From Candidatus Omnitrophota bacterium (lineage in GTDB: Bacteria; Omnitrophota; Gorgyraeia; Pluralincolimonadales; Pluralincolimonadaceae): DNA of 64,000 bases. How positions within the stretch are numbered: the stretch's first letter is position 1; each line of letters begins with the position of its first letter. The stretch spans positions 147,545 to 211,544 of the forward strand of contig JAQUPL010000001.1 in assembly GCA_028716565.1 (NCBI GenBank), in the 5' to 3' direction. Below are positions 36,762 to 53,050 of this stretch, in pieces. Position numbers and translations under genes: made by a program. Under the pieces are notes generated by a model. It was not told the DNA's origin and did no database searches. It saw only the letters and a program-made list of their open reading frames with translations.

Positions 36762-37373
36762 ATGAAAGTTATTGCTTTATCCGTTCTTTTATTGTGTGTG
36801 CTTGTGATGCCCTGCAGGGCGGCGCTTGCCGCGGACCTTATGGTTGCAAGTTTTGAGAATAACGGCCGCACCGACATCGGCACCGACATCGGCACGTGGG
36901 ATTACAATCCTGCCGACCCTAATCAGAGCTGTTCCATTGAGGTAGTACCCATGAAGGACGTATTGGGCAAAGCAGGGGTCGAGACCCATGTCCTGAAGAT
37001 ATCATATAGCGTGGCGTCGTCTATGCCGGCGTTCAACGGCATCTATATCAAGCTCAACAACGCGGACCTCAGTTCTTACGACGAGATGAGCATGCTGATC
37101 AAAGGCGACAACGAAAGGGGATTTACGACCCAATTCAAGGTCGAGATGAAAAATAACAAGGGCGAGCGCGTGGTATACCTTGTCAAAGACATAACCCTCG
37201 GCTGGCAAAAGATAGTAATACCGATGCAGGAACTAAAGGCGCTTGGCTCGATATCCGATTGGTCGAAGATGAAAGAGCTCGTCTTCACGTTCGACGACAT
37301 AACCGCGGATGTCAGGAAGGGCGCCATTTACGTTGACGATATAATGTTCTCGGAGAAAGAACAATCCCAATAG
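36762..37373 (+). CDS. secreted CBM-like beta-sandwich protein (paralog family)
   Basis: 203 aa. Signal peptide. Shares WQKI.IP...DW..I.E.VF.F......G..Y.DD pattern with 37387 and 33577. Confidence 0.45.
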   Translation: MKVIALSVLLLCVLVMPCRAALAADLMVASFENNGRTDIGTDIGTWDYNPADPNQSCSIEVVPMKDVLGKAGVETHVLKISYSVASSMPAFNGIYIKLNNADLSSYDEMSMLIKGDNERGFTTQFKVEMKNNKGERVVYLVKDITLGWQKIVIPMQELKALGSISDWSKMKELVFTFDDITADVRKGAIYVDDIMFSEKEQSQ

Positions 37374-37386
37374 GAAGGGGACAAAG

Positions 37387-38079
37387 ATGCGCTCGAAGAA
37401 GATAATCCTATTATTACTTTTGGCGGCGGGGCTTTTGATGCCGGGCCCTGTCTTTTGCGAAGAGATGCAGGTCAGTGTCCTCAAGATAGATGATTTCGAC
37501 GGCAAAGTGATGTTCAATTTGCTGGGCGGTAAGACGCAGGGCTATGAGGAAGCCGGGATCAAGTGCATACCGTCGTTTACCGATGACCCCAAAGAAAGGT
37601 ACGGCGACAAAGGCGCGTCGCTCAAGCTTGATTTTGACGTGACCAAGAGAGGGAGTTTCGCTTTTTACTGGACTATGCTGACCGTCAAGAAGAATATCGA
37701 AGTCGAAGGCAGGAATGTCGAGGTAATATCATTTGCGGCCCTGCGCGGCCACGATTTCCTGGAATTCCAATTCAAGGACCCGAAGGGGGGAGCCGACTTC
37801 ACGATAGAGGTGCATGAGGATGCCGACAGCGACGGCGTGTATATGATGGGGGTAGACAGGTCATCTATGGTGAATGCCGATCCGTATATTGACAGGACCG
37901 CCGCCGGAAAATGGCAGAAGATATCGATACCGCTTATCAAATTTGCGAACATCAAGGACTGGGACCGCATCCTTGAGATAGTCTTCGTCTTCAAGAGCGG
38001 ATACGGGATACCCAAGGGGACGGTTTATCTGGACGACCTGGAATTGGTAAAATATCCGAAGGAAGAGCCTTCGCAATAG
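37387..38079 (+). CDS. secreted CBM-like beta-sandwich protein (paralog family)
   Basis: 230 aa. Signal peptide. Paralog of 36762. Confidence 0.45.
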   Translation: MRSKKIILLLLLAAGLLMPGPVFCEEMQVSVLKIDDFDGKVMFNLLGGKTQGYEEAGIKCIPSFTDDPKERYGDKGASLKLDFDVTKRGSFAFYWTMLTVKKNIEVEGRNVEVISFAALRGHDFLEFQFKDPKGGADFTIEVHEDADSDGVYMMGVDRSSMVNADPYIDRTAAGKWQKISIPLIKFANIKDWDRILEIVFVFKSGYGIPKGTVYLDDLELVKYPKEEPSQ

Positions 38080-38101
38080 GGCCCCGGAGATCTCAAAAGG
38101 A

Positions 38102-38632
38102 GTGGAGATGAAAAAAACACTTTTTATTCTTGTTTTAAGCGTCGCCTTGTTTTCTCAGGTTGCCGGCATCAACGCGGAAGAACAAAGGACTTACATGAGC
38201 CCTTATTTCAATTTCGCGATAAATTATCCTTCTTCCTGGCAAGCCAGGGAATTAAGCGGTATGGTATTCTTTTTGTCTCCGCGCGAGGGTAACTCGGACG
38301 GTTTTACAGAAAACGTCGGTGTCACTATCGAAGACCTGGCTAAGAATCCGATGAGTTTGGATGAGTATGAGACGATTTCGCTTAAGAATGCCCCAAGCAT
38401 AATACCGGCTTTTAAATTGATAGAAAAGAACAACGCTAAAATAGACGGCAAGAATGCTTATTTTATGGTTTATACTGGCAGCGCACAGACTAGAAGCCTT
38501 AAATATAAGTCATACACGTTTATCACGGATTCAAAGGCGTTCACCTTGACTTATTCAGCCGAAAAGAAGAATTATGATAAATACCTGAAACGGGCTGAAC
38601 TCATAATGAGATCCATTAAAATAACGCATTAA
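38102..38632 (+). CDS. hypothetical exported protein
   Basis: 176 aa. Signal peptide, no motif. RBS GGAGTGGAG. Confidence 0.4.
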   Translation: MEMKKTLFILVLSVALFSQVAGINAEEQRTYMSPYFNFAINYPSSWQARELSGMVFFLSPREGNSDGFTENVGVTIEDLAKNPMSLDEYETISLKNAPSIIPAFKLIEKNNAKIDGKNAYFMVYTGSAQTRSLKYKSYTFITDSKAFTLTYSAEKKNYDKYLKRAELIMRSIKITH

Positions 38633-38678
38633 TATAGGGGACGCGTCAAAAGGGGAAGGTCAGGAAAGGGGATAAGGC

Positions 38679-39167
38679 GTGATAAAGAGATGCAAAAAAT
38701 GCAGGGTCCCGCTGGAAGGGTTTATGTATATATGGGTAGCGGCCAGGATCTTCAAGATCAAGCCCTCCGAAAAGGACCCGGAATTGTGTAATAAGTGCGA
38801 AGACATCACAAACATCCCGGTCCGGATCACAAGCGCATTTAGAGACCTGGTGGTATTGATCGTCGTCACCGTCATCGTATTGGTCATCTCGTATTTTTTT
38901 AGCGTATTCGAGTTTATCGTAAGCCTGTTCAATAAATATCCCCATTTGATAACTTATGTAGACGAGATCATAACATTCCTTTTGACCTTAAGCATCGGCT
39001 TCGCGATCTTCTCCTGGCGCAGATGGCGGGAAGTCAAAAAAGAGGCCGCTGAATGCATAAGACTGCAGGAAGAGCTTGTCAAGGCTGCCGATACAAAGGC
39101 GGAAACAGAGAAGATCATCAGCAAACAGCTTCACAGCGAGATCGAGCTGCGCAAGCAAAAGCGTTAA
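38679..39167 (+). CDS. hypothetical membrane protein with C-terminal coiled coil
   Basis: 162 aa. Two TM helices plus charged helix. True start uncertain. Confidence 0.35.
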   Translation: MIKRCKKCRVPLEGFMYIWVAARIFKIKPSEKDPELCNKCEDITNIPVRITSAFRDLVVLIVVTVIVLVISYFFSVFEFIVSLFNKYPHLITYVDEIITFLLTLSIGFAIFSWRRWREVKKEAAECIRLQEELVKAADTKAETEKIISKQLHSEIELRKQKR

Positions 39168-39180
39168 AATAATCATAGTG

Positions 39181-39237
39181 GCAAGGGAGGGCTGCAAGGC
39201 CTGCCTGAGCGCGTTCAGATACCTCTCCGAACACTGA
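39181..39237 (+). repeat. diverged duplicate of the last 57 nt of trxB (remnant, encodes ...AREGCKACLSAFRYLSEH-stop)
   Basis: 49 of 57 nt identical to 36691-36747 including the TGA at the same position. Several differences are synonymous (TATTTGTCG vs TACCTCTCC both YLS). Confidence 0.6.
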
Positions 39238-39251
39238 CTCGCCGTTTTCCC

Positions 39252-39280
39252 TTGACAAGGATATTTAAATAACATAGTAT
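39252..39280 (+). promoter_or_regulatory. candidate promoter (TTGACA-17-TAGTAT) upstream of hflK
   Basis: TTGACA 39252-39257, TAGTAT 39275-39280. Confidence 0.4.
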
Positions 39281-39354
39281 GAAACCATAAGACAATTAAT
39301 CGGGTCAGAAATATTAATTTATTTCTGAAGGAGAAGTCAATTTGGATGGTCGGG

Positions 39355-39392
39355 CCGCCATCTGTGAAAAAACAGATGGCGGTTTTTGTTTT
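39355..39392 (+). terminator. intrinsic terminator between the promoter above and hflK
   Basis: CCGCCATCTGT-GAAAAA-ACAGATGGCGG hairpin + TTTTTGTTTT. 30 nt upstream of the hflK ATG. Confidence 0.55.
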
Positions 39393-39424
39393 ATAAGGAT
39401 GAATTAAAACGGGAGGCGTAGATC

Positions 39425-40423
39425 ATGGACTGGCAGAACGTCCCTAATCCCGATGAGATAATCGGCATGGGAAGGAAAAGACTGGTTGATTTTTGGAAAT
39501 TTTTGCGATGGTTCATCGTGATATTCATCATTCTTATCGGCATAAAAGGGGTTGTTTACTCTATCGGCCCGGATGAGGTAGGCGTGATCCAGAGATTCGG
39601 CAAGTATATCGGCTTAAGCTCGCCCGGACTGCATGTAAAATTGCCTTTCGAGATAGACAAGGTGACCCCGGTTAAGGTGAAGAAGGTCTTTAAAGAGGAG
39701 TTCGGCTTTAGGACCGTAAAACCGGGAACAAGGACCGACTATAGAAGCGGAGGCAACAAAGACCAGTCCCTGATGCTTACCGGGGATTTGAATATCCTGG
39801 ACGTGCGCTGGATAATCCAATTCAAGATAAAAGACCCCGTTAAGCTGATCTTTGCCACCCGCAACCCTATGGATAACATCGACGATATTTCCGAAGTGGT
39901 GATGCGGCGTTTTGTCGGCGATTATACGGTCGACGAAGTGCTTACCACAAAGCGTGAGGAGATAGACGATCTCGCGCAGCAGGAGATCCAGAAGATCCTG
40001 GATAATTACAACGTGGGGGTCCAGATAGTCACGGTAAAACTGCTGGATGTTAATCCTCCCGAGAAGGTAAAACCGGCTTTCAACGAGGTAAACGAGGCAA
40101 AACAGGAAAAGGAAAAGATGATCAACCAGGCGTGGGAGGCCTACAACAAGGTCATCCCCAAGGCCAGGGGCCAGGCGGAGAAGACCATCCGCGAAGCGGA
40201 AGGTTACGCTACGGATAAGACAAACAGGGCAAAGGGCGAATCGGAACGGTTCCTGATAACATTAAAGGAATATAACAATGCCCCGGAGATAACCAGGAAG
40301 AGGCTATACTTAGAGACCTTAACGGAAGTCCTCCCTAAGGCAAGAGAAAAATATATAATTGATCCAGAGCAGAGGTCGATTCTTCCTATGCTCGACATGA
40401 AAAACAAGGAGGGCCAACGATAA
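39425..40423 (+). CDS. hflK: FtsH protease modulator HflK (SPFH/band-7)
   Basis: 332 aa. N-terminal TM, SPFH domain, HflK-type coiled-coil tail. Followed by hflC with overlapping stop/start (ATGA). Confidence 0.85.
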   Translation: MDWQNVPNPDEIIGMGRKRLVDFWKFLRWFIVIFIILIGIKGVVYSIGPDEVGVIQRFGKYIGLSSPGLHVKLPFEIDKVTPVKVKKVFKEEFGFRTVKPGTRTDYRSGGNKDQSLMLTGDLNILDVRWIIQFKIKDPVKLIFATRNPMDNIDDISEVVMRRFVGDYTVDEVLTTKREEIDDLAQQEIQKILDNYNVGVQIVTVKLLDVNPPEKVKPAFNEVNEAKQEKEKMINQAWEAYNKVIPKARGQAEKTIREAEGYATDKTNRAKGESERFLITLKEYNNAPEITRKRLYLETLTEVLPKAREKYIIDPEQRSILPMLDMKNKEGQR

Positions 40424-41379
40424 TGAAGAAACTGAGTTCCATTATCGCTTTATCTGTAGGAGTATTGGTCCTGGTGATCGCCGCTTTTGCCACCGGGGCT
40501 GTATATATTGTCGATGAAGTGCACCAGGTGGTGATCACGCAATTCGGCAAACCCATAGGAAACCCGATCACCTCCTCGGGGCTGCATCTTAAGAGGCCTT
40601 TTATCCAGACTGCCCATTATTTTGACAAGAGGCTGCTTGATTGGGACGGGGACCCGAACCAGATCCCGACCAGAGATAAGAAGTATATCTGGGTGGATAC
40701 GACCGCGCGATGGAGGATCGTGGATTCCCTGAAATTCCTGCAGTCGGTGGGTAATGAGATCGGCGCCCAGGGCAGGTTGGACGATATCATCAATTCTGCG
40801 ACCAGGGACGTGGTTACCAGCCATCTTTTGGTCGAGGCCGTAAGGGATTCAAACCGCATCCTGGAGACAAAGATCGAAGGAGAAGACCTGATAGTCACGG
40901 ATGAGGCGCTGGAAAGGATAAGTGTCGGCAGGGAACTGCTGGAGAAGGCTATCCTGGACAAGGCGAAGGTCCTCGCCCCGCAGTACGGCATAGAGATAGA
41001 CGATGTGCGCATTAAACGCATAAACTATGTCGAGGACGTGCGCAATAAGGTCTATGACCGCATGATCGCCGAGAGAAAACGCGCCGCCGAGAAATACCGC
41101 TCCGAAGGCCAGGGAAAATCCGCGGAGATCGAAGGGCAGGTGGCCAAAGAGTTAAAGGAGATCTCTTCGGAGGCATACAGGAAAGCCCAGCTTGTAATAG
41201 GTAAAGCCGATGCCGAAGCCGTCAGCATCTACGGCAAGGCCTACAGCCAGGATCCCGGTTTTTATTCATTTCTGAAGACGCTCGAGACGTATAAGGAGAC
41301 CATCGACGGGAATTCAACGGTGATCCTGACCACCGACAGCGATTATTATAAGTACCTTAAAACCCTTGACGAGAAGTAA
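40423..41379 (+). CDS. hflC: FtsH protease modulator HflC
   Basis: 318 aa. SPFH domain; canonical hflK-hflC pair. Confidence 0.85.
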   Translation: MKKLSSIIALSVGVLVLVIAAFATGAVYIVDEVHQVVITQFGKPIGNPITSSGLHLKRPFIQTAHYFDKRLLDWDGDPNQIPTRDKKYIWVDTTARWRIVDSLKFLQSVGNEIGAQGRLDDIINSATRDVVTSHLLVEAVRDSNRILETKIEGEDLIVTDEALERISVGRELLEKAILDKAKVLAPQYGIEIDDVRIKRINYVEDVRNKVYDRMIAERKRAAEKYRSEGQGKSAEIEGQVAKELKEISSEAYRKAQLVIGKADAEAVSIYGKAYSQDPGFYSFLKTLETYKETIDGNSTVILTTDSDYYKYLKTLDEK

Positions 41380-41428
41380 CATCCAGTCCCGAAGGAAGAC
41401 TAATCCTTTCCATAGGAATAGGCACGCA

Positions 41429-41488
41429 ATCACAACCCTCTGCAATTATAATAGTTGCAGAGGGTTTTTGTTTGGAGTAGAATAAATC
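41429..41488 (+). repeat. about 58-bp terminator-like repeat element, copy 1 (also the hflC terminator)
   Basis: ATCACAACCCTCTGCAATTATAATAGTTGCAGAGGGTTTTTGTTTGGAGTAGAATAAA. Hairpin CCCTCTGCAA/TTGCAGAGGG + T-run. About 86% identical to 48578-48636. Confidence 0.7.
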
Positions 41489-41622
41489 CTGACGGAGTGT
41501 CCCAAAGTGACACGTCCCCAAAATCCCGCAATAGCAGAAAATTAAGCAAAAAAGCAAATATTTCCTCTTGTAATAATGTCAATTAATGGTACATTAGAGT
41601 ATCTTCGATACGTGACGATAAT

Positions 41623-42195
41623 ATGAAAAAATCAACTATTATAATAATCGCGATCCTGCTAACGTTCCCTGCGGCGGCAAGCGCCAATCTGCTGGTCAAC
41701 CCGGGATTTGAGACGGGTAATTTCAGCGGATGGGCTCCTTACGCTTTCGGCTCTGAGAATGTATCAAGCGCAAACCCTTACACGGGCCAGTATGAGGCAA
41801 GAATAACTAACTACGGATGGATAACCCAAACCGTCAATTTAACGCCGAATGCCACCTACAAGCTGTCTTCATACCTGTATATGCCGCAAGACGGCGGTGA
41901 CGCGTCGATCTCCATAACTTTTTATAACTCTACCGGCACGACTTCCTTCCAGCAGGAGCGTTCCTGGCAGCGGATCCCGGGAGACCAGCAATACGATAAG
42001 ATAGAAACGGACTGGCTGGTTGCCCCCAGTTATACCGCTTATGCCAAAGTGCGCTGCTCAGTCGCTTCAGCCGGCAGCTATATTGACTTCGATGACGTCA
42101 GCTTGGATGTTGTGCCGGAACCGAGCTCGCTGGTTCTTCTGTTTACCGGCCTTACAGGATTATTCGGTTTACTGACCCGCCCCAAAGGTGTATGA
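41623..42195 (+). CDS. PEP-CTERM sorting-signal protein with CBM-like N-terminal domain
   Basis: 190 aa. Signal peptide. C-terminus VVPEPSSLVLLFTGLTGLFGLLTRPKG is a classic PEP-CTERM (PEP, TM, basic tail). Confidence 0.6.
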   Translation: MKKSTIIIIAILLTFPAAASANLLVNPGFETGNFSGWAPYAFGSENVSSANPYTGQYEARITNYGWITQTVNLTPNATYKLSSYLYMPQDGGDASISITFYNSTGTTSFQQERSWQRIPGDQQYDKIETDWLVAPSYTAYAKVRCSVASAGSYIDFDDVSLDVVPEPSSLVLLFTGLTGLFGLLTRPKGV

Positions 42196-42228
42196 TATTC
42201 CCGTACTCCAATTAACTGGAGGAAGGGG

Positions 42229-42468
42229 ATGCCTTTTCTGCTGATTTTATTATTGGTTCCTTTAGTCATCTTAATAGCCGGCTTAATATTATTCATTAAG
42301 CCGGCTTCTTGCATTAAATGGCAGATTAAATTCTACAGCAAGATCAACTGGCGAATGGAACCCATCAATATGGAAATGGAGATCAGGAATACGAAGATCA
42401 TGGGATTATTCCTGATTGGCGCGGCTATAGCAACGGTCATCTATCCATTAATTAGGGGAAATAAATGA
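42229..42468 (+). CDS. small hypothetical membrane protein
   Basis: 79 aa, two TM helices. Stop overlaps the next start. Confidence 0.3.
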   Translation: MPFLLILLLVPLVILIAGLILFIKPASCIKWQIKFYSKINWRMEPINMEMEIRNTKIMGLFLIGAAIATVIYPLIRGNK

Positions 42469-44759
42469 AAAAGATCATTTTGATAACGTTAATTTTATTA
42501 TTTTCATTTACAGGCCCTTTGATTCCTGCAAAGGAAGAGAATCTCGCTGATTCTACGCCTCCTTCCGCACCCGTAATCAATACTGATAAGAGAACAAAAT
42601 CACTAGATATGATCGTTGCGCACTGGAAAAGCGAAGACCCTGAATCAGGGATAGCCGAGTATCAGTACGCAATAGGGACGGTCCCGGAAGGCACCGATGT
42701 TCTATACTGGACCTCAAACGGGCCGAACGAAGATTGTTATGTCTATCAGGTAAGATTGGAGAAAAATAAAAATTACTATATCTCTGTGGTCGCAAAAAAT
42801 AAAGCGGGCTTAAAAAGCAAAGTAGCCACAGCCGGTCCGATAAAAGCTGCAAAAGAAGTATATATATCGGTTGAATGGCCAAGGTTTAATTCAATTATAA
42901 GGAATAATGAAACAAGGATAAGTGGCACTGCCGAAGGTGTTGATACTGTAAATATTAACGGCAGGGAATTCGCAGTTAATGATGACGAGTCATTTAAAGG
43001 CCCGACTTTAGTAGCACCCGGTTATGCCGCAAGAAAAGGGATCGATGCAAAAGACCCGAATTATATTATTATGAATTTTCCCGGGAAGACAGATATTAAA
43101 GTATCCGCCGAAGGAGAGGAATCGTTTACAACGTGTTACTATTATCAAGCTTATTTGAAGAGTTCTACAACTTCGGAGAGTTATGCTTATTCTGATGAGT
43201 TCCAATCCTGGAATATGGATGCCTTGGCAAAATCACCGTTTGCCGATTGGAAAGACTATCAATATCCATCAAGGATCAGGACTAAGAAAAATATGTCGGA
43301 AGCCTGGACGCCCTGGCAATATTGCGATTACTACTTTAAGTGGTGGAGATATTATCATAGCGCAATATCATATCCCGGGAAACCGGGCAGATGCACTTCC
43401 TCAATGACGATTCATACACTACCGGCCAAAAAAGGAGAGATTGAGCCGATGATATTGCTATTCCAAGAGTGCATGATATCACCTTATGACTTTAAAGGAA
43501 GGCGTCCTGATATTTCAGAATATAAGATGAATGGCAGACAATTGAAGTGGTTTTACGGTGATGCAAATAAATTGCCCAACTGCGCTTATATCATCCTGGA
43601 TAAGTATGTTCCGGATACCGATATCGAGCTTAAGGTCGAAGCTCCTGTTTTGAAGACCGATACTAAAGGGAATCCAACCGAATTACAGACATTTGCGTGC
43701 CGGTTCATAGATGTATTTGAAATGGAACTCGTACGCGAAACCCCGTTTAACAGCGGAAATTATAGCGTTGTGCAGACTATACCGATTTTCACCCCGGATA
43801 CAGGAGAAGGGCGAGGGTTGCCTTTGGGCGTGATTAACATGCCTTTTTTAAAGCTTAACCTTGATAAGGAATTATCTGATTCGCAGGTTGACCACTTAAA
43901 TGCTGAATTGAGAATAGCTGACAAAGTCACGAAATATACCTTAACGGAAACGTCACCCAATTCGCAGGTGTTTACGGACGAATCTAAGGACTTCGTTATC
44001 AAATTTGAGCCTTTAGTAAAAACTAGCCCAAGCGAACAAGATGATATTGTATGTTTTTTAACCTCAAAGAAAAATAACATAAATGACCAGGTTTTCAATC
44101 TTAGAGAAACCGCCTCGGATTCACTATGTTTTGAGGACGTAAAAGTGTTCATTACGGTCTGGTTTAAAGGAGAATTAAGCGACCAGCAAAAAGATATGAT
44201 GACAATCCAATTCACGAAAGGCATGATGGCTGGCGACCAGGAGCTTACGGAAACGGGCGAAAACTCGTTGGAATTTACGAACAAAGACGGCGATCTTACG
44301 GTGCGGCTTAACAACTATAAGGGTAAATTTAGTGGTGCGCTTGATGTGACTGCCCCGAACAAGGGCTATATGGACCTAAAAAGCCCAAGGCTTATTCTTG
44401 AGAGAGTCGACCCATCAAAATACTGTTTTACAAATGAAAATTTCGGCAACGGCACTAATGTTACCCAAGAAGATCCCGGAATATCCGGCGAGGGTATATT
44501 CAGGGCCAGGATAAGAGGATTGCACGATCTCAATAAATATTCTTTAAATCGGCTGGTAATCGTGATTACAGTTGATGGAGTTTCAAAGAGTTTAAAATTA
44601 ACAAAACACACGGATGGATCGTACATTACCGGAAATCTGCTATTAGTTCTGAAAGATCAAAAGGGGGAAAGGGACTATAAAGGAGTAACCGTATTCCACA
44701 CAGATGGCAAAAAGGGTGTAGGGGCTATTTCAACAAAATTTATGGAAGTAAACGAATAA
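42465..44759 (+). CDS. large secreted protein of unknown function (N-terminal FN3/Ig-like module)
   Basis: 764 aa. Signal peptide, then PSAPVINTD...WKSEDPESGIAEYQYAIGT...module. Remainder has no recognisable motif. Confidence 0.5.
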   Translation: MKKIILITLILLFSFTGPLIPAKEENLADSTPPSAPVINTDKRTKSLDMIVAHWKSEDPESGIAEYQYAIGTVPEGTDVLYWTSNGPNEDCYVYQVRLEKNKNYYISVVAKNKAGLKSKVATAGPIKAAKEVYISVEWPRFNSIIRNNETRISGTAEGVDTVNINGREFAVNDDESFKGPTLVAPGYAARKGIDAKDPNYIIMNFPGKTDIKVSAEGEESFTTCYYYQAYLKSSTTSESYAYSDEFQSWNMDALAKSPFADWKDYQYPSRIRTKKNMSEAWTPWQYCDYYFKWWRYYHSAISYPGKPGRCTSSMTIHTLPAKKGEIEPMILLFQECMISPYDFKGRRPDISEYKMNGRQLKWFYGDANKLPNCAYIILDKYVPDTDIELKVEAPVLKTDTKGNPTELQTFACRFIDVFEMELVRETPFNSGNYSVVQTIPIFTPDTGEGRGLPLGVINMPFLKLNLDKELSDSQVDHLNAELRIADKVTKYTLTETSPNSQVFTDESKDFVIKFEPLVKTSPSEQDDIVCFLTSKKNNINDQVFNLRETASDSLCFEDVKVFITVWFKGELSDQQKDMMTIQFTKGMMAGDQELTETGENSLEFTNKDGDLTVRLNNYKGKFSGALDVTAPNKGYMDLKSPRLILERVDPSKYCFTNENFGNGTNVTQEDPGISGEGIFRARIRGLHDLNKYSLNRLVIVITVDGVSKSLKLTKHTDGSYITGNLLLVLKDQKGERDYKGVTVFHTDGKKGVGAISTKFMEVNE

Positions 44760-44858
44760 AGTCTAATAAGCCAAAGTCTGATTTCATATGCCCGCGCAGA
44801 GAAGACATACGACAAGTCGATCGATAATTACCTGCGTAACAGAAAAAGATAGAATAAT

Positions 44859-45362
44859 ATGAAAATATTAAAGATACTTCTATTTTTAGTTTTAATGTTT
44901 ATTGGGGTTTATTTCTTAATAATCAGTATCGAGGGTTTTATACCCATTTTGACCAGGCATGTTGATACAAATGGAAATGATTTAATTATACTGCTGACGA
45001 TTTGTACTTTTTTCGCGGCAATGTGTCTGATAGGTTCTATTGGAAAATTATTCTTCAGAAAATGGGCCCGCTTCCTAGTAATTGTTGATGTCGCGTTTAA
45101 TATCGCGATTGCATTTTTTCTTTCCGGATTTACTGTAATAATTCAAACTGGAGTGGATACTGCCTACAGCGATTCTGTCGGCATCATTAGATACTGGGGT
45201 TTTCCAATTCATTATTGTTCGAAGGCTCCTGGTTTAGCTTGGGCTGAGTATGATCCTATGCGGTTTTTATTGAATTCATTTGTTTGGTTCATCTTTCTTA
45301 TGGCGTTTTGGTTTTATCGGAGAAAAATAGGACAGAAATCTAAAGAAGCAAGGCCTGAATGA
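44859..45362 (+). CDS. hypothetical polytopic membrane protein
   Basis: 167 aa, 4 predicted TM helices. Confidence 0.4.
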   Translation: MKILKILLFLVLMFIGVYFLIISIEGFIPILTRHVDTNGNDLIILLTICTFFAAMCLIGSIGKLFFRKWARFLVIVDVAFNIAIAFFLSGFTVIIQTGVDTAYSDSVGIIRYWGFPIHYCSKAPGLAWAEYDPMRFLLNSFVWFIFLMAFWFYRRKIGQKSKEARPE

Positions 45363-45688
45363 GGATCTGGGATATAGCGCCAAGAAAATTATGCCGCAAC
45401 CATCTCCTGGGCGAGCACAGGGAACTTCACGCCATCTGGTCTGTCCTGACACGCAAAAAGAAAGGGTATTCCCGTCATCCGGAGACCTTAAGGTGGAAGG
45501 GCAGGTTAAAGGCGCTGTATTCAAGGCACAATAAGCTCATAGCGGAGTTTAAAAGGCGGGGTTACAGGCATTACAGCCCTCTTGATTCGAGGCTGGCAAT
45601 AGGGAAGGGGAGGCAAACGCAATTCGTCAATTCGGTCAGTGAACAGGCTCAAATTTTAGGAAGGAAACACTGCGGCTGTAAGATATAA
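45359..45688 (+). CDS. pyrimidine-dimer DNA glycosylase-like protein (T4 endonuclease V / Pyr_excise family, short form)
   Basis: 109 aa. RNHLLGEHRELHAIWSV aligns with T4 endoV ADQHLMAEYRELPRVFG (catalytic Glu region). Confidence 0.5.
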   Translation: MRIWDIAPRKLCRNHLLGEHRELHAIWSVLTRKKKGYSRHPETLRWKGRLKALYSRHNKLIAEFKRRGYRHYSPLDSRLAIGKGRQTQFVNSVSEQAQILGRKHCGCKI

Positions 45689-45704
45689 AAGGGGACAGTT
45701 CATA

Positions 45705-47384
45705 ATGAAAAAAGTTAATGGTTTTTTAGTATTTATTACGATTATATTGTTAATTTTCCCTTCTAAAGTATCATTTTCTGTTACTGAGGAACAAATAAAA
45801 ACTTATGCTCCGAAATGCATAGAAGTGTTGAAAAGCGAAACAACTTCTGCTGAAGAAAAAAAGGAAGCAGCCACAAAACTTCGGTACTATGTAGATAAAT
45901 CTATAACGAAGCAACTAATAGAGCTTTTGAAAGCCAAGGATCCCATGTCAAGATATACAGCAGTACGATATTTGGACCTCACAAAGGATCCTTTAGCTAT
46001 ACCCGCATTAGTGGATACATTAAAGGATAAAGACGATGGAGTTAGGCGACTTGCAGCATCGGCATTACAAGGTTACTCGGGCAAAGAAGAAAATGCCCCG
46101 GCGTTTAATTCAAAGATGATTTTACGAATAACTCAATCATTACATGATCAAGATGCCAAGGTGAGAAGGTCGGTCCTATTGATATTAGCGTCTCTGAAAG
46201 ATCAGTCGGCGGTTCCGTCTGCTGTAAAGGCTTTGGGTGACCCGGAACCTGAGGTAAGAAAGGAAGCTGTTAATATATTGATAAAGTTAGATGTCTACAA
46301 GGCAGCTCCCTATCTTATGAGGGTTCTGAAAGATAAAAATGAGGATGTGCAACGAGCCGCTATATGCGGTTTAATATGTTCCAAGAACACTTCTATTGTA
46401 CCCAATCTCATAGACTTAACAAAGGATCAAGATGCTAACATAAGAAGACAGGCTATATTTTGCTTACAATTTCTGAATGATAAAAGAGCTATACCTGTTT
46501 TTATTAAATCTTTGGACGATCAAGATAAAGAAGTGAGGCGACGGGCGGTGTATGCTTTAGGCGCAAAGGGATTTGAAGGAACAGAGGTGATCGATGGTTT
46601 AATCAAAGCATTGGGCGATGAATCTGATGAGGTCCGTGAAGCAGCCGCTTTTGGTTTAGGGCATAAAGAGGGAGCTAAAAAAGCCATCCCCGTACTTATG
46701 GATGCTTACAAAAAAGGATCTAACAGATCAAGGATATCAAGCAGTAGCACACTTATTAAGCTATGTGACAAAACTGATATTCCCTTTTTTGTCGGGCTTC
46801 TCAAAAGCGACAATCCTCATCTTAAATCTCAGACATGTTACATATTGGAAAATATCGGCGATAAATCAGCAATTGCTCCTTTGCTCGAGGTTTATAAAAA
46901 AGATGCCGATGAAAATGTTAAATTAAGCGCTTTTCACGCTCTCATAACAATTGATGATTTTCCAGAAATGCGTCCTATCTGTTTAGAGGCATTAAAAATG
47001 TCTAAGCCTCAGTTTAAATGTTATGCATTATATGGGCTAATGAAATTGAAAGACGAGTCTGTATATGATGATGTTATTAAGTATTCAAAAGATGAAAATA
47101 GAGAAGTTCGTAAAGCAGCCATTGTATTTATTGGCTCGTCAACAAATAAAAATGCGTTGAAAGATATTGAACCCTTCTTGGAAGATGCGGATTTGGATGT
47201 TAGGGAAGAAACTGTTGTTTTAATTGTAAAGAAATTGGGCAAAGAATCGATCCCTATATTGGAGCGCCATGTGGATCGAACAAGCGATTCCTCTGACCCT
47301 GTAAAGGTCACCCTGAATGCTTTGAAAGCTGGGAAAGAGCCCGACGCTGCGATAATAGAAATGTTTTATACTTTTCATGAATAA
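45705..47384 (+). CDS. HEAT-repeat (PBS-lyase-like) protein, exported/anchored
   Basis: 559 aa. N-terminal signal/anchor, then about 12 repeats of the AIPALVDTLKDKDDGVRRLAASAL type. Confidence 0.65.
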   Translation: MKKVNGFLVFITIILLIFPSKVSFSVTEEQIKTYAPKCIEVLKSETTSAEEKKEAATKLRYYVDKSITKQLIELLKAKDPMSRYTAVRYLDLTKDPLAIPALVDTLKDKDDGVRRLAASALQGYSGKEENAPAFNSKMILRITQSLHDQDAKVRRSVLLILASLKDQSAVPSAVKALGDPEPEVRKEAVNILIKLDVYKAAPYLMRVLKDKNEDVQRAAICGLICSKNTSIVPNLIDLTKDQDANIRRQAIFCLQFLNDKRAIPVFIKSLDDQDKEVRRRAVYALGAKGFEGTEVIDGLIKALGDESDEVREAAAFGLGHKEGAKKAIPVLMDAYKKGSNRSRISSSSTLIKLCDKTDIPFFVGLLKSDNPHLKSQTCYILENIGDKSAIAPLLEVYKKDADENVKLSAFHALITIDDFPEMRPICLEALKMSKPQFKCYALYGLMKLKDESVYDDVIKYSKDENREVRKAAIVFIGSSTNKNALKDIEPFLEDADLDVREETVVLIVKKLGKESIPILERHVDRTSDSSDPVKVTLNALKAGKEPDAAIIEMFYTFHE

Positions 47385-47421
47385 AAAGTAAGGTAAATAG
47401 AGGTCGCGTCGAAAGGTAGCA

Positions 47422-48077
47422 ATGAAAAAGGTAATCACCTACGTAGCGCTCACATTCCTTCTTAGCTCCGCCGGCTATTACCTGATAATCAATAGTAAAG
47501 CTTTAGGCCTGAGCCCGGCTTTGCTGATGTTATACCTTATGTGGTGTCCCGGGATCTCGGGCATGGCCACCTCGCTCATATATGAAAAGAGCCTCTCCGG
47601 CATCGGCTGGAAACCGGGCAAACTGCGCTGGCTGGGATTGGGGTATCTCCTGCCTATCTGCTACGCGGCCGCCGCTTATGGGATCATCTGGCTCTCCGGC
47701 TTCGGTGGCGTCAACCATGATTACCGTATTAACGCGTTTATACTCATCGTGTTGGGCCCGGCAATAAGCGTGGTGTATGCGGCAGGGGAGGAGATAGGCT
47801 GGCGCGGGTCACGATAACCGCGATGACCTTCGCTATCGGATGGCTAAGGCTGAAATCAGGCAGTGTCTGGCCGGCGATCCTGATGCACGCAAGCCATAAC
47901 TTTTACATCCAGTGGTTATTCGACCCGCTTACGACCGAAACAGGCCCGATGTCCAACTATATGATCGGCGAATCCGGTATCGTTTTAACAGTGATTTTTA
48001 TCGGGCTGGCGTTGGTTTTTTGGAGTCAAAGAGGGCGGCTTCCGAACTTCGAAAATAGAACCGGAGTTGTGCAATAA
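47422..48077 (+). pseudogene. CPBP (CAAX/Abi-type) intramembrane metalloprotease, frameshifted
   Basis: Motif 1 EEIGWRG at the end of ORF 47422-47817, then a stop. Motif 3 HASHN appears in the next ORF (47823-48077) in a different frame. Confidence 0.5.
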
Positions 48078-48102
48078 ACGTGAAAGGAATCTTGATTAGA
48101 AA

Positions 48103-48528
48103 ATGAAGTGGGATATAGCTCAAAAGAAGGTCAGCTCATTTCTTAGAAGCGGCTATGATGAACTAAAAAAGCAAAAAGTGGTAAATATCAATCATTCTTT
48201 TCCTACCAAACCCGGAACTTACATATTTATAAAAGAACGTAAAATCATATACGCAGGTGAAGCTTCTGAATTAAAAAGAAGAATGTACAGACACAAAAAA
48301 AGAACAGAGGTAAGTACTTTAAGAAAATCTATTGGTTTCGTCGTTTTTAAACAAGCAAAATCAGGAATGTTTAGCAAACAAATCGAAAATAGGATAAATA
48401 ACTATATTGCAAATCTTAAAATTAAATATATAGAAGTTCAATATGGTAGAAAAGAATTGGAAGAGTATATTATTAATATAGAAAAACCAATTCACAACAA
48501 AGTATTTAAAGGACCGAGATCTGTTTAA
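48103..48528 (+). CDS. GIY-YIG-like nuclease domain protein (tentative)
   Basis: 141 aa, AT-rich. PGTYIFIKERKIIYAGEASELKRRMYRH resembles GIY...YIG...R...H. Downstream Glu/Asn are present. Confidence 0.45.
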   Translation: MKWDIAQKKVSSFLRSGYDELKKQKVVNINHSFPTKPGTYIFIKERKIIYAGEASELKRRMYRHKKRTEVSTLRKSIGFVVFKQAKSGMFSKQIENRINNYIANLKIKYIEVQYGRKELEEYIINIEKPIHNKVFKGPRSV

Positions 48529-48577
48529 TTGGTACCACCCTAATTTTGTGCGTTGAAAGAACAGGGGTCATAAAATA

Positions 48578-48636
48578 ATCATAACCCTTTGCATTTATAA
48601 CTGTTGCAGGGGGTTTTTGTTAGGAGTAAAATAAGA
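48578..48636 (+). repeat. about 58-bp terminator-like repeat element, copy 2
   Basis: AATCATAACCCTTTGCATTTATAACTGTTGCAGGGGGTTTTTGTTAGGAGTAAAATAAG. Hairpin with G-U pairs + T-run. Confidence 0.7.
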
Positions 48637-48726
48637 TTAGTAGCGTGCTCCTAGGCTGAGTACCTCCATAGGCACACTAATAAGGTGTAGATTTTTTGTC
48701 TTAGTAGTATAAGGAATCCCAAATAA

Positions 48727-50535
48727 ATGATTTATTCAATAAAAATTAAAAATTTTAAAAGCATAGGCAAAGAAGAACAAGTTTTAGATAATTTAGGTTC
48801 AGTCAATGTTTTTATAGGAGAGAATAATTCTGGTAAGACTGCAGGATTGGAAATTCTTTGGATTTTTGGAGAAATATTATTGGAGAATTTAGAAACAACC
48901 GGACGCATTAATTCTATCGGGTCTCTCATAGATCAAGAGTCATCTTTCCCAGCCGGCGATATTTTGGATAAAATTAAGACCATATCATCTAATATTGATA
49001 AAATGACTGATTTTGTTCATCAAAATGAAGGTAATATCGAATTAGAAATTGTATTTAATGCAAACGACTCATTTCGTGAGCATGTTAAAGATTTATCAAC
49101 GTCGAAGCGTAATCTTCAAGAAGAAAGGGTGCTAGAAGAAAAGCTAATAAGAGACGTAAAAGATATAGATTTATTAAAATTAAGGTTTATTTTAGATTTT
49201 AATCGACATGTTTTTAGAATAATTCAGGTTGGATGGGGAAATATAAATTTAGTATGCATTGAAAATAATACTTTAAAATATGTAAGTTTGGATGATTATT
49301 TAGCAGATTCGCACTTTCTAATTGAAAATGCGAATCTAAATCGTAATAATAGATTTTTTAATAATGTAATTGTTCCTCAAATACGTGAATTTCTTTCTTA
49401 TCTTCGACGCACCTATTACATTCATTCAAAAAGAAAAATAGACGAGATTATAAAGGTAGATGATGGACGTCAAGGAATAAAAGGTTCAAATCTTAAAAAA
49501 ATAATGTTTGACTTATTTCATGACGGGGACCAGCGACGTAGAGAAAAATACTTTAAAATATTAGAAGTATTTAAAAAAATTGCAGGTAAACAGATTAGAA
49601 GGGATCCTTATAAAGATAGTAGAAAAGTGGATTTAGTATTTGAAGAGGGGAATATAAGCGTAAATATTGATAATTCAGGCTATGGCTATAATCATCTATT
49701 AAATCTTGTATATAATATTATTATTAGCGATGCGAATACGATTTTAATTGATGAACCAGAAATTTCGCTTCATCCTCAGGCACAGCTGAGATTTATTGAA
49801 TTTATTAAAGAAGTCGCAAATAAAGAAAAGAAGCAATTTTTTATTTCGACTCACTCGCCATATTTCATCAGTTTAGAAGCAATAGATAAAGTATTTAAAT
49901 TTACAAAATCTGATACAATAACTCACGTTACAAGAATCAACAATGAAAAGACTGTACAAGCAATAAAAGACAAGAAGGAGGGTATTTTTAATTTTAGACA
50001 TAGAGAATTATTTTTCATGAATAAAGTAATATTTGTTGAGGGGAGTGAGGACCTAGTTGCTTTGCCGCAGTATTTTACTGAGAGCCTATCCATTTCTAGA
50101 GAATGCCTGTATCAATTAGGGGGAATTAATGATGAGAAAATAGCTCTCTTCTCGTCATTTTGTAACGACCTAGGTATAAAATATGCTTTTATATTAGATT
50201 TTGATTATCTTAGAAAGGATACAAACAAGAAGAGGTTTATCCAGGCGCTAAAAAAGATTGAAGAAAAACCCAAATCTACAAATCGGCTTTTAACGTTACT
50301 CGATAAAAATGGACTTAAAGGTAAAAATAAAGAAATGGTAAAAGATATTTGGTTAAAAGATTGGGCTAGTTATTGGAATAAAAAAACGTTGCAAAATCTT
50401 TTGAAAAAATACAAGGCCAATGGAATATTTATTATGCCATTTTACGATGTTAAAATATTAAAAGAAACAACGGCTACAGATTTCGCTTTTGAGGCTAATA
50501 AAATTATTAGTGAAGTTAATGAATACCTTTTGTAG
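48727..50535 (+). CDS. OLD-family ATP-dependent nuclease (ABC-type ATPase + TOPRIM; GajA-like or class-1 OLD)
   Basis: 602 aa, about 30% GC by eye. Walker A GENNSGKT, Walker B/D-loop ILIDEPEISLHP, H-loop STHSP. C-terminal TOPRIM VIFVEGSED and FILDFD. Confidence 0.75.
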   Translation: MIYSIKIKNFKSIGKEEQVLDNLGSVNVFIGENNSGKTAGLEILWIFGEILLENLETTGRINSIGSLIDQESSFPAGDILDKIKTISSNIDKMTDFVHQNEGNIELEIVFNANDSFREHVKDLSTSKRNLQEERVLEEKLIRDVKDIDLLKLRFILDFNRHVFRIIQVGWGNINLVCIENNTLKYVSLDDYLADSHFLIENANLNRNNRFFNNVIVPQIREFLSYLRRTYYIHSKRKIDEIIKVDDGRQGIKGSNLKKIMFDLFHDGDQRRREKYFKILEVFKKIAGKQIRRDPYKDSRKVDLVFEEGNISVNIDNSGYGYNHLLNLVYNIIISDANTILIDEPEISLHPQAQLRFIEFIKEVANKEKKQFFISTHSPYFISLEAIDKVFKFTKSDTITHVTRINNEKTVQAIKDKKEGIFNFRHRELFFMNKVIFVEGSEDLVALPQYFTESLSISRECLYQLGGINDEKIALFSSFCNDLGIKYAFILDFDYLRKDTNKKRFIQALKKIEEKPKSTNRLLTLLDKNGLKGKNKEMVKDIWLKDWASYWNKKTLQNLLKKYKANGIFIMPFYDVKILKETTATDFAFEANKIISEVNEYLL

Positions 50536-50665
50536 CTATTTTTATTATAGAGAATTCGAAATAACTAAAAATAAAATAGGGGAAGTGTCCAAAGGGATAG
50601 GAAATAATGCACAAAATTATCGGACAAAAAGCATATCAACCGAATAATTAAATAAAGGGGGTAAC

Positions 50666-51853
50666 ATGGATCTAATCTCTTGCTTGGAAGATAAAAGAAT
50701 AAATGCGACAAATCTTGCCTTTGAGATCTCAATAGGAAACTATCTTGAGATTGCGTCCTCTATTTTAGACAGTAACATATTTCAGCGCAGACGGGTAAAA
50801 TCCTCATCAACAATTTATGCGCTTTTAAAAGACGATTTAAAGTTGGGGTGCGTTATTCCTCCTCTTGTCCTGGCGTTTGAGGAAGAAATTGATGCCGGCG
50901 ATTTTGTTAAAGAAGCTAAAGCAAAACCAGAATTTTTGGTGAATTTTATGAAAAAGAATATCAAGCATCTTTTGATTTTAGATGGTCTACAGCGCACCTA
51001 TACTCTATTAGAATTACGCGATGAATTGATGAAACAATTCGATGAGGAATTATTAAAAAAAATCCTTAATAGTAATATAAGAATAGAATTATACATTAGC
51101 GTAAATCGTATTGGCATCCTTTACCGAATGTTAACTTTGAATACAGGGCAAACTCCAATGAGCTTACGGCATCAAATAGAGATTCTTTATTCTGATTATT
51201 TGAATGCTGAAGTGGCAGGACTAAGGTTGATATCCGAAGTTGAGGAGCAAAGAGCAACTCATCTTACTGATTATAAATTTAGAGATGTTATGGACGGATT
51301 TAATTCGTATCTGGAACGTAACGAGTTGCCAATTGATAAATTTGAGCTTCTGGAAAATATTAAAGGGTTAGAAAAACTAGCGAAGGAAAATCAAAACCAA
51401 GATATCTTTCGTGGATTTTTACTGTCATTCCATGTATTTCTCATGAAGATGGTTAGTATTGGTGATAATTGGAAGCTTAACCCAGAAGTAGCAAAAAGTT
51501 TTGGAGGCAATCCATTTGGAGTTGATGTTGAATCAATTTTTAAGAAAAATCAAACGTTATCTGCTTTTGGGGCCGCGGTAGGTAGATTGAAGGATTTCGA
51601 TGTTATTGATAATTTTGAGTCCTTAAATCCTATCATCGCCAATATAAAATTTCAGACCAATCCAGACGAAGGGTATAACAAGCTTCTTAAGGTACTTGAT
51701 GACATTCGCTTAAAATCTAAGAAAATTGGTAATGCTCAACGTATGTATTTTCAATACTTCTTTCGTGAATTATTTAATAGCAATACAGATTCTTATGGCG
51801 TAATAGAAGCAGCTGTTGATAATGCTTATCAGAAATACTTAAGCCAAATTTAA
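50666..51853 (+). CDS. DUF262 / ParB-like nuclease-domain protein
   Basis: 395 aa. N-terminal FQRRRV (pFQRxxVW-type) and LILDGLQRTYTL (DGQQR motif). No DUF1524/HNH tail seen. Confidence 0.6.
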   Translation: MDLISCLEDKRINATNLAFEISIGNYLEIASSILDSNIFQRRRVKSSSTIYALLKDDLKLGCVIPPLVLAFEEEIDAGDFVKEAKAKPEFLVNFMKKNIKHLLILDGLQRTYTLLELRDELMKQFDEELLKKILNSNIRIELYISVNRIGILYRMLTLNTGQTPMSLRHQIEILYSDYLNAEVAGLRLISEVEEQRATHLTDYKFRDVMDGFNSYLERNELPIDKFELLENIKGLEKLAKENQNQDIFRGFLLSFHVFLMKMVSIGDNWKLNPEVAKSFGGNPFGVDVESIFKKNQTLSAFGAAVGRLKDFDVIDNFESLNPIIANIKFQTNPDEGYNKLLKVLDDIRLKSKKIGNAQRMYFQYFFRELFNSNTDSYGVIEAAVDNAYQKYLSQI

Positions 51854-51855
51854 TC

Positions 51856-52944
51856 ATGACATTAACAATAGGAGATATGGAAGGGGAAAAAGTTAATTTA
51901 GGATTACCAAACTTTTTGCCTGGTGAAAAAGTTTTTTCTCTAGAGTTTAATGGAGAAGCAATAAATGTGCCATATTTATTGCAGGTGGAGGAACCATATT
52001 CCGCCGATGCGTTTGAAATGCATTTGTTTATTAATGCTGCAACACATGAAAATGATATTTTTCGTGTTTATGAAGTGGAAAGTGGCGAAATAATCGGATG
52101 GTTGTTTCCTGTTCAGGCGCTTCTTTCAGTTGAGCACGATTATGCCAACGATGAATATTTTCTACCTTGTGCTTTTGCTGCTTTTCAAAAGTTATTACAG
52201 GGCGAAGGCTTACCCGCAAAAACCCCGATTTTAAAAACGGAACAACTATCAATTTTAGATTTTTATAATGACAGCGATATCGTTTTATTATTAGCAAAAA
52301 ATCAAATTAGTAAAATAAAAGATTTTAATATCAAATTTTATCTGCCAGATCTTTTTAAGTATGGTTATCGGTATAAAGATAAAATAGAAACTGTGAATAA
52401 ACGAGTCAGTAAATTTTATGAAGAGTTAGATAAAAATATCAAACTACGTAAGATGTCAAGCAGGCTAATTGCTAATACGTATATATATGACTTATTTACT
52501 GATATATTAGATGATAACGATGTCATTCATGCGTTTTTATCTCTGTATCAAGTTATTGAAATAGTTATATTTGACATTTTTAAAGATGAACTGGCGAAGT
52601 GTCTAGATGATTACTCTAATCTTTCTGAAAATGACTATGGAGGCTTTTTCGATATAGGAGACAAGTTAAATTCTATCAAATCAGAAAAGAATCGAGTTGC
52701 AAATTTATTTAATTATACAAACGACACGTTGGAATTACGAGATCTATGCAATAATCTCTTGCAGCAATTAAGTTTAAAAACTGAAGACAACGCAGCGAAA
52801 GCGCTTTATTCTGTTAGGAGTAACTTGGTTCATGCATATCGATTATTTTCTAAGCCGCAAAAGATAATTTTAGAGGAAGTGGTAGAAGAATTTATTGGTG
52901 TTATCATCGATCTTGTTATTTGTTATAAAAAGGACATAAAATAA
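51856..52944 (+). CDS. hypothetical protein with C-terminal HEPN-like Rx4H motif (Abi-like, tentative)
   Basis: 362 aa. LYSVRSNLVHAYRLF resembles the Abi_2/AbiD-F-type lRNxxAHxxRlf HEPN motif. Starts 3 nt after the DUF262 gene's stop. Confidence 0.35.
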   Translation: MTLTIGDMEGEKVNLGLPNFLPGEKVFSLEFNGEAINVPYLLQVEEPYSADAFEMHLFINAATHENDIFRVYEVESGEIIGWLFPVQALLSVEHDYANDEYFLPCAFAAFQKLLQGEGLPAKTPILKTEQLSILDFYNDSDIVLLLAKNQISKIKDFNIKFYLPDLFKYGYRYKDKIETVNKRVSKFYEELDKNIKLRKMSSRLIANTYIYDLFTDILDDNDVIHAFLSLYQVIEIVIFDIFKDELAKCLDDYSNLSENDYGGFFDIGDKLNSIKSEKNRVANLFNYTNDTLELRDLCNNLLQQLSLKTEDNAAKALYSVRSNLVHAYRLFSKPQKIILEEVVEEFIGVIIDLVICYKKDIK

Positions 52945-53014
52945 AAAGCGTGTTTAAAATGGACAGGTTGTAAGTAACGCGCCTCAAGGTCCTAAATAAT
53001 CCCGCCTAAAAATC

Positions 53015-53043
53015 TTGACACCCACACAAATGTGTGGTATATT
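53015..53043 (+). promoter_or_regulatory. lexA promoter with palindromic operator candidate in the spacer
   Basis: TTGACA 53015-53020, perfect palindrome CCACACAAATGTGTGG 53022-53037, TATATT 53038-53043. ATG of lexA at 53051, so essentially leaderless. Confidence 0.5.
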
Positions 53044-53050
53044 CCTGCCT

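Follow-up and report, generated by a model that had tools for sequence, protein, structure and literature searches.

The stem sequence of ordinary intrinsic terminators varies freely. Several bacterial groups carry dispersed intergenic repeats with regulatory side-effects, namely REP/BIME in enterobacteria, Correia elements in Neisseria and BOX/RUP in pneumococci. Hotspots of defence islands anchored by core genes are found in enterobacteria, Vibrio and Pseudomonas, and the cassettes of integrons are typically promoterless. Here we examine a pair of 58-base-pair (bp) hairpin-bearing repeats in a 64-kilobase (kb) stretch of DNA from Candidatus Omnitrophota (contig JAQUPL010000001.1; the whole stretch is called the window hereafter), in which one copy follows hflC and the other a decayed CPBP protease gene upstream of lexA. 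We place a probability of about 0.75 on the following explanation taken as a whole, mechanism and regional history included: a composite module is widespread in intergenic DNA of Omnitrophota, and both 58-mers belong to one of its lineage-specific subfamilies. In the plus-strand RNA, the hairpin and its U-tract would end the upstream transcription unit, hflKC at copy 1 and the CPBP gene at copy 2. A TTGCAG hexamer lying in the 3′ arm, a 17-bp spacer containing the T-tract and a TAGAAT or TAAAAT box would then constitute a sigma-70-type promoter for the next gene.

Pairwise comparison of positions 41428-41485 and 48577-48634 gave 50 identical bases out of 58 (86%), and a degenerate pattern drawn over both copies matched the window at these two sites alone and had no match in 100 shuffles. 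The repeat pair reported at about 58 bp and 86% identity by the first-pass annotation, an earlier reading of the letters alone, is thereby borne out, these being its sole two sites in the window. By weight-matrix scan copy 1 scored 53.7 bits and copy 2 45.0 bits, with the next site at 0.5 bits. This third-ranking site (1-33, plus strand) is a promoter-like TTGACA-N17-TAAAAT without a hairpin, whose spacer (…TTTTTGGG…) resembles that of the module. All features of both copies lie on the plus strand. Copy 1 (41428-41485), delimited by comparison, pattern, fold and weight matrix, consists of a hairpin at 41434-41466 with arms AACCCTCTGCAA and TTGCAGAGGGTT around a 9-nucleotide (nt) loop, and of a T-tract which, read from the sequence, begins at 41465. 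Its −35-like TTGCAG (41455-41460) is separated by a 17-nt spacer from the −10-like TAGAAT (41478-41483). Copy 2 (48572-48634) has a 5′ edge, AAAATAATCATAA, starting at 48572, followed by a hairpin with two U·G wobble pairs (48583-48615), TTGCAG at 48604-48609 and, after the same 17-nt spacing, TAAAAT at 48627-48632.

The module was searched for in a collection of genomes, requiring the hairpin arms and TTTT only, and 66 loci were returned. As a hairpin stem alone, the element is a sporadic terminator in many phyla; the conserved tail TTTTTnTTTrGrGTAnAAT after the stem was seen only in Omnitrophota-type matches. A TAnA[A/C]T box located 16-18 nt after TGCAG was present in 12 of the 15 Omnitrophota-type loci versus 1 of the 51 others (p = 1e-9), counts that include among the 15 a locus labelled Planctomycetales (L038) and would become 11/14 versus 2/52 if it were moved. 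The L038 module and that of Omnitrophota contig L007 are nearly identical, and for this reason the L038 contig may be mis-binned; it also carries, near its module, a group I intron recognised by Rfam (221-450, minus strand, 57 bits). No locus in the genome scan bore both window copies together. A second scan, of metagenomes, used a pattern of the 3′ arm plus tail, TTGCNGNGGGNTTTTNTTNNNNGTANAAT, with 20 specified bases and matched at least 120 stretches, for a rough chance expectation of a handful.

The genes around the 15 Omnitrophota-type loci of the genome scan were mostly non-homologous and, among the matches listed, 108 downstream proteins fell into 87 clusters. The first-pass annotation had allowed that the 58-mer might belong to a common terminator family unrelated to islands, and at the level of the phylum this is largely what we observed, with unrelated and mostly ordinary gene neighbours. 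Rfam gave no family at either copy, at gathering or E-value thresholds, and returned chance-level matches only; a full-text literature search yielded no account of a motif like this in Omnitrophota. We regard the feature as ordinary regulatory DNA, a putative terminator fused to a promoter, of modest added interest as a phylum-wide family that the literature searched does not describe.

Both copies fold on the plus strand and the fold is followed by TTTTTGTT, the hairpins alone reaching −21.7 kcal/mol in copy 1 (a stem of 12 bp) and −14.6 kcal/mol in copy 2 (11 bp). The differences in the stem of copy 2 are one-sided, U-A to U·G and C-G to U·G, and preserve pairing on the plus-strand RNA only; on the minus strand copy 2 showed a weak fold (−9.7 kcal/mol, z = −1.6). 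The hairpin had been said to be kept by compensatory G-U changes: it is indeed kept on the plus strand, but the changes are two one-sided substitutions. Copy 1, with hflC, and copy 2 both display the layout of a terminator, with a stable stem-loop and a U-tract located 3′ to a same-strand gene. Among the matches listed, the upstream same-strand open reading frame (ORF) ended at a median of 41 nt before the module in 74 of 93 sites, and the 5′ arm paired at 9 or more of 10 positions in 82% of 118 unique sites. At one stem position of these matches we counted 52 U-A, 18 C-G and 13 U·G pairs and 9 non-pairs; over three scored positions, 42 wobbles allowed on the plus strand were observed versus 7 of the minus-strand type. 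Loop length peaked at 9 nt (55/92 listed sites). Double changes in the stem were seen in two relatives, L070 and L196, that of L070 being C-G to U-A. This covariation, the wobble bias and the sharp loop length argue for selection on the hairpin as RNA, in the strand sense of the upstream gene, as a terminator would require.

Turning to the promoter half, the −10 boxes TAGAAT and TAAAAT each agree with the consensus at 5 of 6 positions and stand 17 nt from the −35-like hexamer. Among the matches listed, a same-strand ORF started downstream of the −10 box in 108 of 114 sites, at a median distance of 24 nt, and in 19 sites the start codon lay less than 10 nt past the box, as in leaderless mRNAs. 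The 3′ half was found without a good 5′ arm (at most 8 of 10 positions pairing) in 21 of 118 listed sites, about 18%, and because these sites retain the 3′ half only, the putative promoter half appears able to occur without the hairpin.

Several points weigh against this reading of the module as a terminator fused to a promoter. The −35-like TTGCAG matches TTGACA at 3 of 6 positions and a consensus promoter scan lists neither copy. From the −10 box to the next start codon there are 139 nt at copy 1 and 94 nt at copy 2, for a family median of 24 nt. In the metagenome scan many tail positions were forced by the pattern, and conservation of the tail is there partly built in; the unbiased evidence for the tail consists of the 15 genome-scan matches. 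Finally, function as terminator and promoter leaves unexplained, taken alone, why the stem is conserved at unrelated loci across the phylum, and likewise why near-identical subfamilies occur in particular lineages.

A rival reading is that the module is a mobile or mobilised dispersed repeat (REP, MITE or Correia-like) that copies itself into intergenic DNA and brings a terminator and a promoter, the two copies being two insertions. A sharp-edged unit is found in many unrelated contexts, and the lineage subfamilies comprise near-identical copies within single contigs: four in 2.1 kb of L134, four in 5 kb of L150 and three in 1.1 kb of L178. The subfamily of the window has in common the AAAATAATCATAA edge and an ATTATAA loop. 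In L134 (1-2143), as also in L143, L182 and L189, the four modules are spaced by about 600 nt and identical over about 48 nt bar one base in one of them; each precedes one small unrelated gene, forming an array of one-gene transcription units. The loop can also be inverted: L116 and L166 share an upstream flank (93% over 400 nt) and the same module, with loops CAATAAATA and TATTTATTG respectively and different downstream DNA, the inversion being the expected product of recombination between the hairpin arms.

Against such mobility, the edges of seven aligned copies showed neither terminal inverted repeats beyond the hairpin nor a target-site duplication, the Pfam scans of the region gave no transposase family, and no RAYT-like gene was seen nearby. 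The near-constant co-direction with both neighbours indicates functional selection and not insertion, as does the tight spacing to the start codon. Density appears low in this lineage, with 2 copies in the 64-kb window and as many in 71 kb taken from relatives without regard to the module, and viral contigs contributed a single match, the module being not phage-associated. We regard mobility as unlikely on this balance. The REP/MITE alternative raised in the first-pass annotation is partly right, in that the sequence is a dispersed intergenic hairpin repeat with lineage subfamilies; terminal inverted repeats beyond the hairpin, target-site duplication and a transposase were not found.

A protein of a Candidatus Omnitrophica metagenome-assembled genome is identical (100%) to HflC of the window. 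Contig L001 (GCA_028714115.1) is 99.7% identical to window 30423-42111 and carries an identical copy 1; it ends at 42111, before the drop in guanine-plus-cytosine (GC) content. In L070, hflC is followed by a short ORF-like stretch resembling a zinc ribbon and then by a hairpin of the same build with the tail TTTTGTTTTATGTATAAT. The hflC-side copy is present in L001 and L070, and the CPBP-side copy in L196, L145 and L198 (these three recovered through the module scans and LexA homologues); none of these loci showed both positions together. Over the 58-column comparison, module B of L145 agrees with copy 1 at 53 positions and with copy 2 at 54, for 50 between the window copies themselves. Because each is closer to the L145 module than to its partner, the two copies are not each other's closest relatives and do not derive from one recent event. 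Since each copy occurs in relatives independently of the other and at its own locus, copy 1 is the resident module of hflKC, copy 2 that of the CPBP gene, and both are older than the content between them.

Similarity to L196 extends on the side of copy 1 beyond the module, through 41486-41522. This stretch of about 37 nt, ATCCTGACGGAGTGTCCCAAAGTGACACGTCCCC, contains the inverted pentamers GTGTC and GACAC, and is also found 3′ to the CPBP module in L196 (5951-5988) and, less conserved, in L145 (about 6475-6495, minus strand). It is absent after copy 2 of the window, where cargo genes begin immediately. The stretch may be an operator or belong to a longer ancestral form of the module.

Three relatives allow the region to be compared gene by gene. 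In L196 (LexA 86% identical), the order in the orientation of the window is an autotransporter, proteins of 143 and 484 residues, an intact CPBP gene, the module, four unrelated genes and lexA; 3 nt separate the CPBP stop codon from the module and, to the right of lexA, L196 remains syntenic with window 55-62.8 kb at 92% nucleotide identity. L145 carries glpK, glpD, a CBM gene (89% amino-acid identity), an 844-residue autotransporter, a 168-residue protein, Pyr_excise (91%), a CPBP 3′ fragment (96%) and module A, then a type II methylase, a restriction enzyme and a cupin, module B, an AbiJ-like gene and a UvrD-type helicase. L198 (LexA 82%) has the CBM gene, a 76-nt CPBP remnant, a decayed module, DitA-like, DUF2130 and PDC-S06 (660 bits) genes, and lexA. 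The top LexA homologues among relatives reach 93% identity.

In the window, the hflK (39425-40423) and hflC (40423-41379) genes, both Band_7 by Pfam and on the plus strand as are all genes given below, form an operon that ends at copy 1. The next gene (41623-42195) encodes a CBM_4_9 protein by Pfam with a borderline PEP-CTERM match (19.5 bits for a cut-off of 20.7) and has its own upstream region (41548-41622), common to relatives; the protein is 89% identical in L145, 70% in L169 and 79% in L198. It is followed by a variable segment (42171-45357, GC about 0.40) coding for a 79-residue membrane protein, a 764-residue secreted protein with a signal-peptide-like N-terminus and a 167-residue membrane protein. 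At this position L145 has the 844-residue autotransporter and the 168-residue protein, and L198 is without these genes. A 109-residue pyrimidine-dimer DNA glycosylase (Pfam Pyr_excise, 45359-45688) comes next; its L145 homologue, 91% identical, directly adjoins the CPBP remnant. For the 559-residue HEAT-repeat protein (Pfam, 45705-47384), none of L145, L196 and L198 showed a homologue here.

The CPBP (Rce1-like) protease pseudogene (47422-48077) occupies two reading frames, has core-like GC and misses about 145 nt compared with the intact 264-residue L196 gene, being 94% identical in nucleotides to L196 5065-5489 and 5635-5874. L196 retains the 5′ half of the gene (a 131-residue ORF) intact, and L145 and L198 lack it. 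An insertion (48050-48571) with a GIY-YIG nuclease gene (48103-48528, GC about 0.32) then separates the CPBP 3′ end from copy 2; these ~520 nt replace the 13 nt TAG(T/C)GGAATAAAG of L196 and L145. No GIY-YIG homologue adjoined the module at any of about 190 module-bearing loci, which speaks against the idea that this nuclease targets modules. As regards gene content, then, the earlier inventory held: a PEP-CTERM protein (borderline), a 764-residue secreted protein, the glycosylase, a HEAT-repeat protein, a broken CPBP gene and a GIY-YIG protein. A separate observation concerns contig L126 (1-1860), where Pyr_excise-like coding occurs at the start (residues 38-109) and again at the end (residues 1-35), with differing identity to the window, and the module in mid-contig; this could reflect tandem paralogues or an assembly artefact.

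The block between the copies had been described as of lower GC than the core. This applies to 42.2-47.4 kb (about 0.40), but not to 41.6-42.2 kb with the CBM gene (about 0.50, core-like) nor to the CPBP remnant at 47.4-48.05 kb (0.50-0.55). From about 48.08 kb, at GIY-YIG, to 52.95 kb GC is about 0.30; this AT-rich stretch begins upstream of copy 2, which lies inside it and not at its edge. Copy 1 is about 0.7 kb to the left of the first GC drop.

These data decide on the proposal that the copies are attL and attR of a 7.1-kb island integrated into the hflC terminator. In its favour are the 7.1-kb spacing of the direct repeats and, between them, partly lower GC and non-housekeeping genes. However, a CPBP-side module follows the CPBP gene in L196, L145 and L198, and a hflC-side module is found in L070 and, identical to copy 1, in L001. 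The CBM, Pyr_excise and CPBP genes are common to relatives in the same order (79-96% amino-acid identity), and the copies are just 86% alike, each nearer to copies in other genomes. GC shifts (at about 42.2, 47.4, 48.08 and 52.95 kb) and homology breakpoints versus L001, L145, L196 and L198 (42111-42170, 45358, 45688, 47383-47835, 48043 and 48572) are located away from the repeats, and Pfam matched no integrase or transposase family in the region's 12 genes (9 ORFs between the copies and 3 cargo genes). An empty site with hflC leading directly to lexA, which the first-pass annotation suggested looking for, was found in none of 8 relatives (82-86% nucleotide identity in hflKC), all of which have different genes after hflC. 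For these reasons (independent loci, nearer foreign copies, lack of an integrase family and GC shifts off the repeats) we reject a single site-specific integration and hold it to be very improbable. Considered simply as attachment sites, the repeats do not stand at native/foreign junctions, the sole such junction being the 3′ edge of copy 2.

That junction opens a slot of 4.4 kb (48639-53011, GC about 0.30) which ends at lexA. It contains an OLD-family ATPase-TOPRIM nuclease gene (48727-50535; Pfam AAA_15 at residues 1-381 and OLD-like_TOPRIM at 429-493), matched in PADLOC by Old, AriA and GajA with no adjoining GajB or AriB partner. It is followed by genes matching Dazbog DzbA (50666-51853; PADLOC 455 bits, E = 5e-137, full length) and DzbB (51856-52944; 192 bits), which, being adjacent, are predicted to form a Dazbog defence system. 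The lexA gene with its promoter (53015-53599) is the right anchor of the slot. The promoter elements are TTGACA (53015-53020) and TATATT (53038-53043) at 17-nt spacing, and the start codon is probably ATG at 53051, not TTG at 53015. The promoter spacer harbours a perfect palindrome, CCACACAAATGTGTGG (53022-53037), kept in L196 and a candidate LexA operator (SOS box) of this lineage.

Homology with L196, L145 and L198 runs no further than the 3′ edge of copy 2 (48634-48638). For L196 it picks up again at 53012-53015, the lexA −35 box, and for L198 some 20 nt before that box (52992); the L145 contig does not reach lexA. The cargo differs in each case: OLD and Dazbog in the window, type II restriction-modification and AbiJ-like genes in L145, PDC-S06 and DitA-like genes in L198, and in L196 four genes not recognisably defensive, giving defensive cargo in two of three relatives. 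Because homology stops at the copy 2 edge, resumes near lexA and encloses different genes, the comparison supports a small defence hotspot of this lineage between module and lexA, in four genomes sampled. The idea of serial acquisition at a hotspot before lexA is in this way retained for the slot that runs from the CPBP module to lexA, but not for the interval between the repeats.

The same junction could suggest that modules are docking sites for cassette exchange, integron-like or through portable homology, with copy 2 as the entry point of defence cassettes. The homology of the window, L145, L196 and L198 does end at the module 3′ edge with different cargo beyond, and the type II restriction-modification cassette of L145 sits between two modules. 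Many locus pairs have one module flank in common: the upstream flank alone in 61, the downstream alone in 47 and both in 16. However, inspection revealed no attC core sites (RYYYAAC / GTTRRRY) and no extrahelical bases, and no integrase lies nearby. In multi-module contigs the genes between paired modules, judged from N-terminal sequences, are ordinary ones (aquaporin, MscL, ACR3, rubrerythrin and small zinc-ribbon proteins). Synteny breaks at operon boundaries are common in diverged genomes anyway, and the right end of the window cargo is the lexA promoter, without a second module. Docking is in our view improbable, more so than mobility of the module. As a candidate integron attC site, the module was set aside: its 5′ side TCATAAC and 3′ side GTTTTTG are not complementary cores, its stem is perfect, and Pfam gave no integrase family. 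A broader version, in which the ~60-nt unit would be a self-propagating or recombination-active 'expression cassette boundary', a portable terminator-promoter element that spreads within genomes as lineage subfamilies and at which foreign genes such as defence systems dock and are captured under a resident promoter, seems doubtful to us, on a par with mobility.

We thus return to the composite module and its two resident copies. According to this explanation, both would have occupied their own loci earlier than the genes that now lie between and after them, and the hflC-lexA region would be a mosaic of several separate events, as the breakpoints of homology indicate. The segment 42.2-45.4 kb would have been replaced, the HEAT gene gained or lost and the CPBP gene left to decay; GIY-YIG would have been inserted just 5′ to copy 2, and cargo swapped between the copy 2 3′ edge and the lexA promoter. 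The module promoter would be positioned to drive any gene landing in the slot, and the cargo would most likely be exchanged by homologous recombination through the conserved flanks.

Other repeats and RNA elements were noted upstream of the region. The sequence 36679-36747 recurs 2.49 kb downstream at 39169-39237 with 84% identity; it forms the last 69 nt, stop codon included, of a thioredoxin-reductase-like gene (35842-36747). The pair brackets four genes (203-residue, 230-residue, PsbP-like and 162-residue products), is also present in L001, and no empty site was found in relatives. It looks more like the footprint of an insertion into the 3′ end of a gene than does the 58-mer pair. The window contains the 12-mer AAAATAATCATA at just two places, the junction of the second 69-nt repeat copy (39166-39177) and the 5′ edge of copy 2 (48572-48583), with 16-nt contexts agreeing at 14 of 16 positions. 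At least two matches, with one mismatch allowed, arose in 16 of 100 shuffles; the sharing was not used as evidence. Just upstream of hflK, Rfam indicated a candidate nhaA-I riboswitch (39302-39363, plus strand; 38.2 bits for a gathering threshold of 37), followed by a strong terminator-like hairpin (39352-39385). Among relatives whose contigs reach so far upstream, homology with L003, L074 and L075 starts at the nhaA-I element (39302), and that with L070 at 39296.

For uncultivated phyla, the locus is a caution in island calling: direct repeats around low-GC genes are here copies of a regulatory module. In Omnitrophota, for which there is no genetics, the module is also a searchable candidate expression signal, TTGCAG, 17 nt, TAGAAT, fused to a putative terminator. 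It could anchor the prediction of operons and start sites, those of leaderless genes included. It raises the question of why the sequence of a terminator stem is conserved phylum-wide.

Compared with the attL and attR sites of islands, the repeats of the window are likewise direct, tens of bases long and at the 3′ end of a conserved gene. They differ in lying off the boundaries of foreign DNA, in having no integrase, in being older than the content they enclose and in not being mutual nearest relatives. With integron attC sites the module has in common an imperfect hairpin of about 60 nt between gene cassettes, but it lacks R″/R′ cores and an IntI gene, carries a putative promoter and appears to be selected at the RNA level. 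The slot from the CPBP module to lexA resembles defence-island hotspots by its fixed position and different anti-phage systems per relative; in contrast to these, its left anchor is a terminator-promoter module that would place the cargo directly under a resident promoter, as seen in the four genomes sampled.

Similarly to REP/BIME, Correia and BOX/RUP, the module is short, hairpin-forming and intergenic, occurs as lineage subfamilies and could supply a terminator or a promoter, but no terminal inverted repeats, target duplications or partner transposase were seen for it, and its density in this lineage is apparently low and its orientation near-fixed. The closest likeness in build is to an intrinsic terminator joined to a sigma-70 promoter: the module offers a GC-containing stem, a U-tract, covariation at the RNA level, a TAnAAT box and a downstream gene and, as an intrinsic terminator, it is found 10-130 nt past a same-strand stop codon. 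It departs from this arrangement in having its −35-like element inside the terminator 3′ arm and the T-tract in the promoter spacer, and from intrinsic terminators in that a module of about 60 nt, stem included, is conserved at unrelated loci throughout the phylum.

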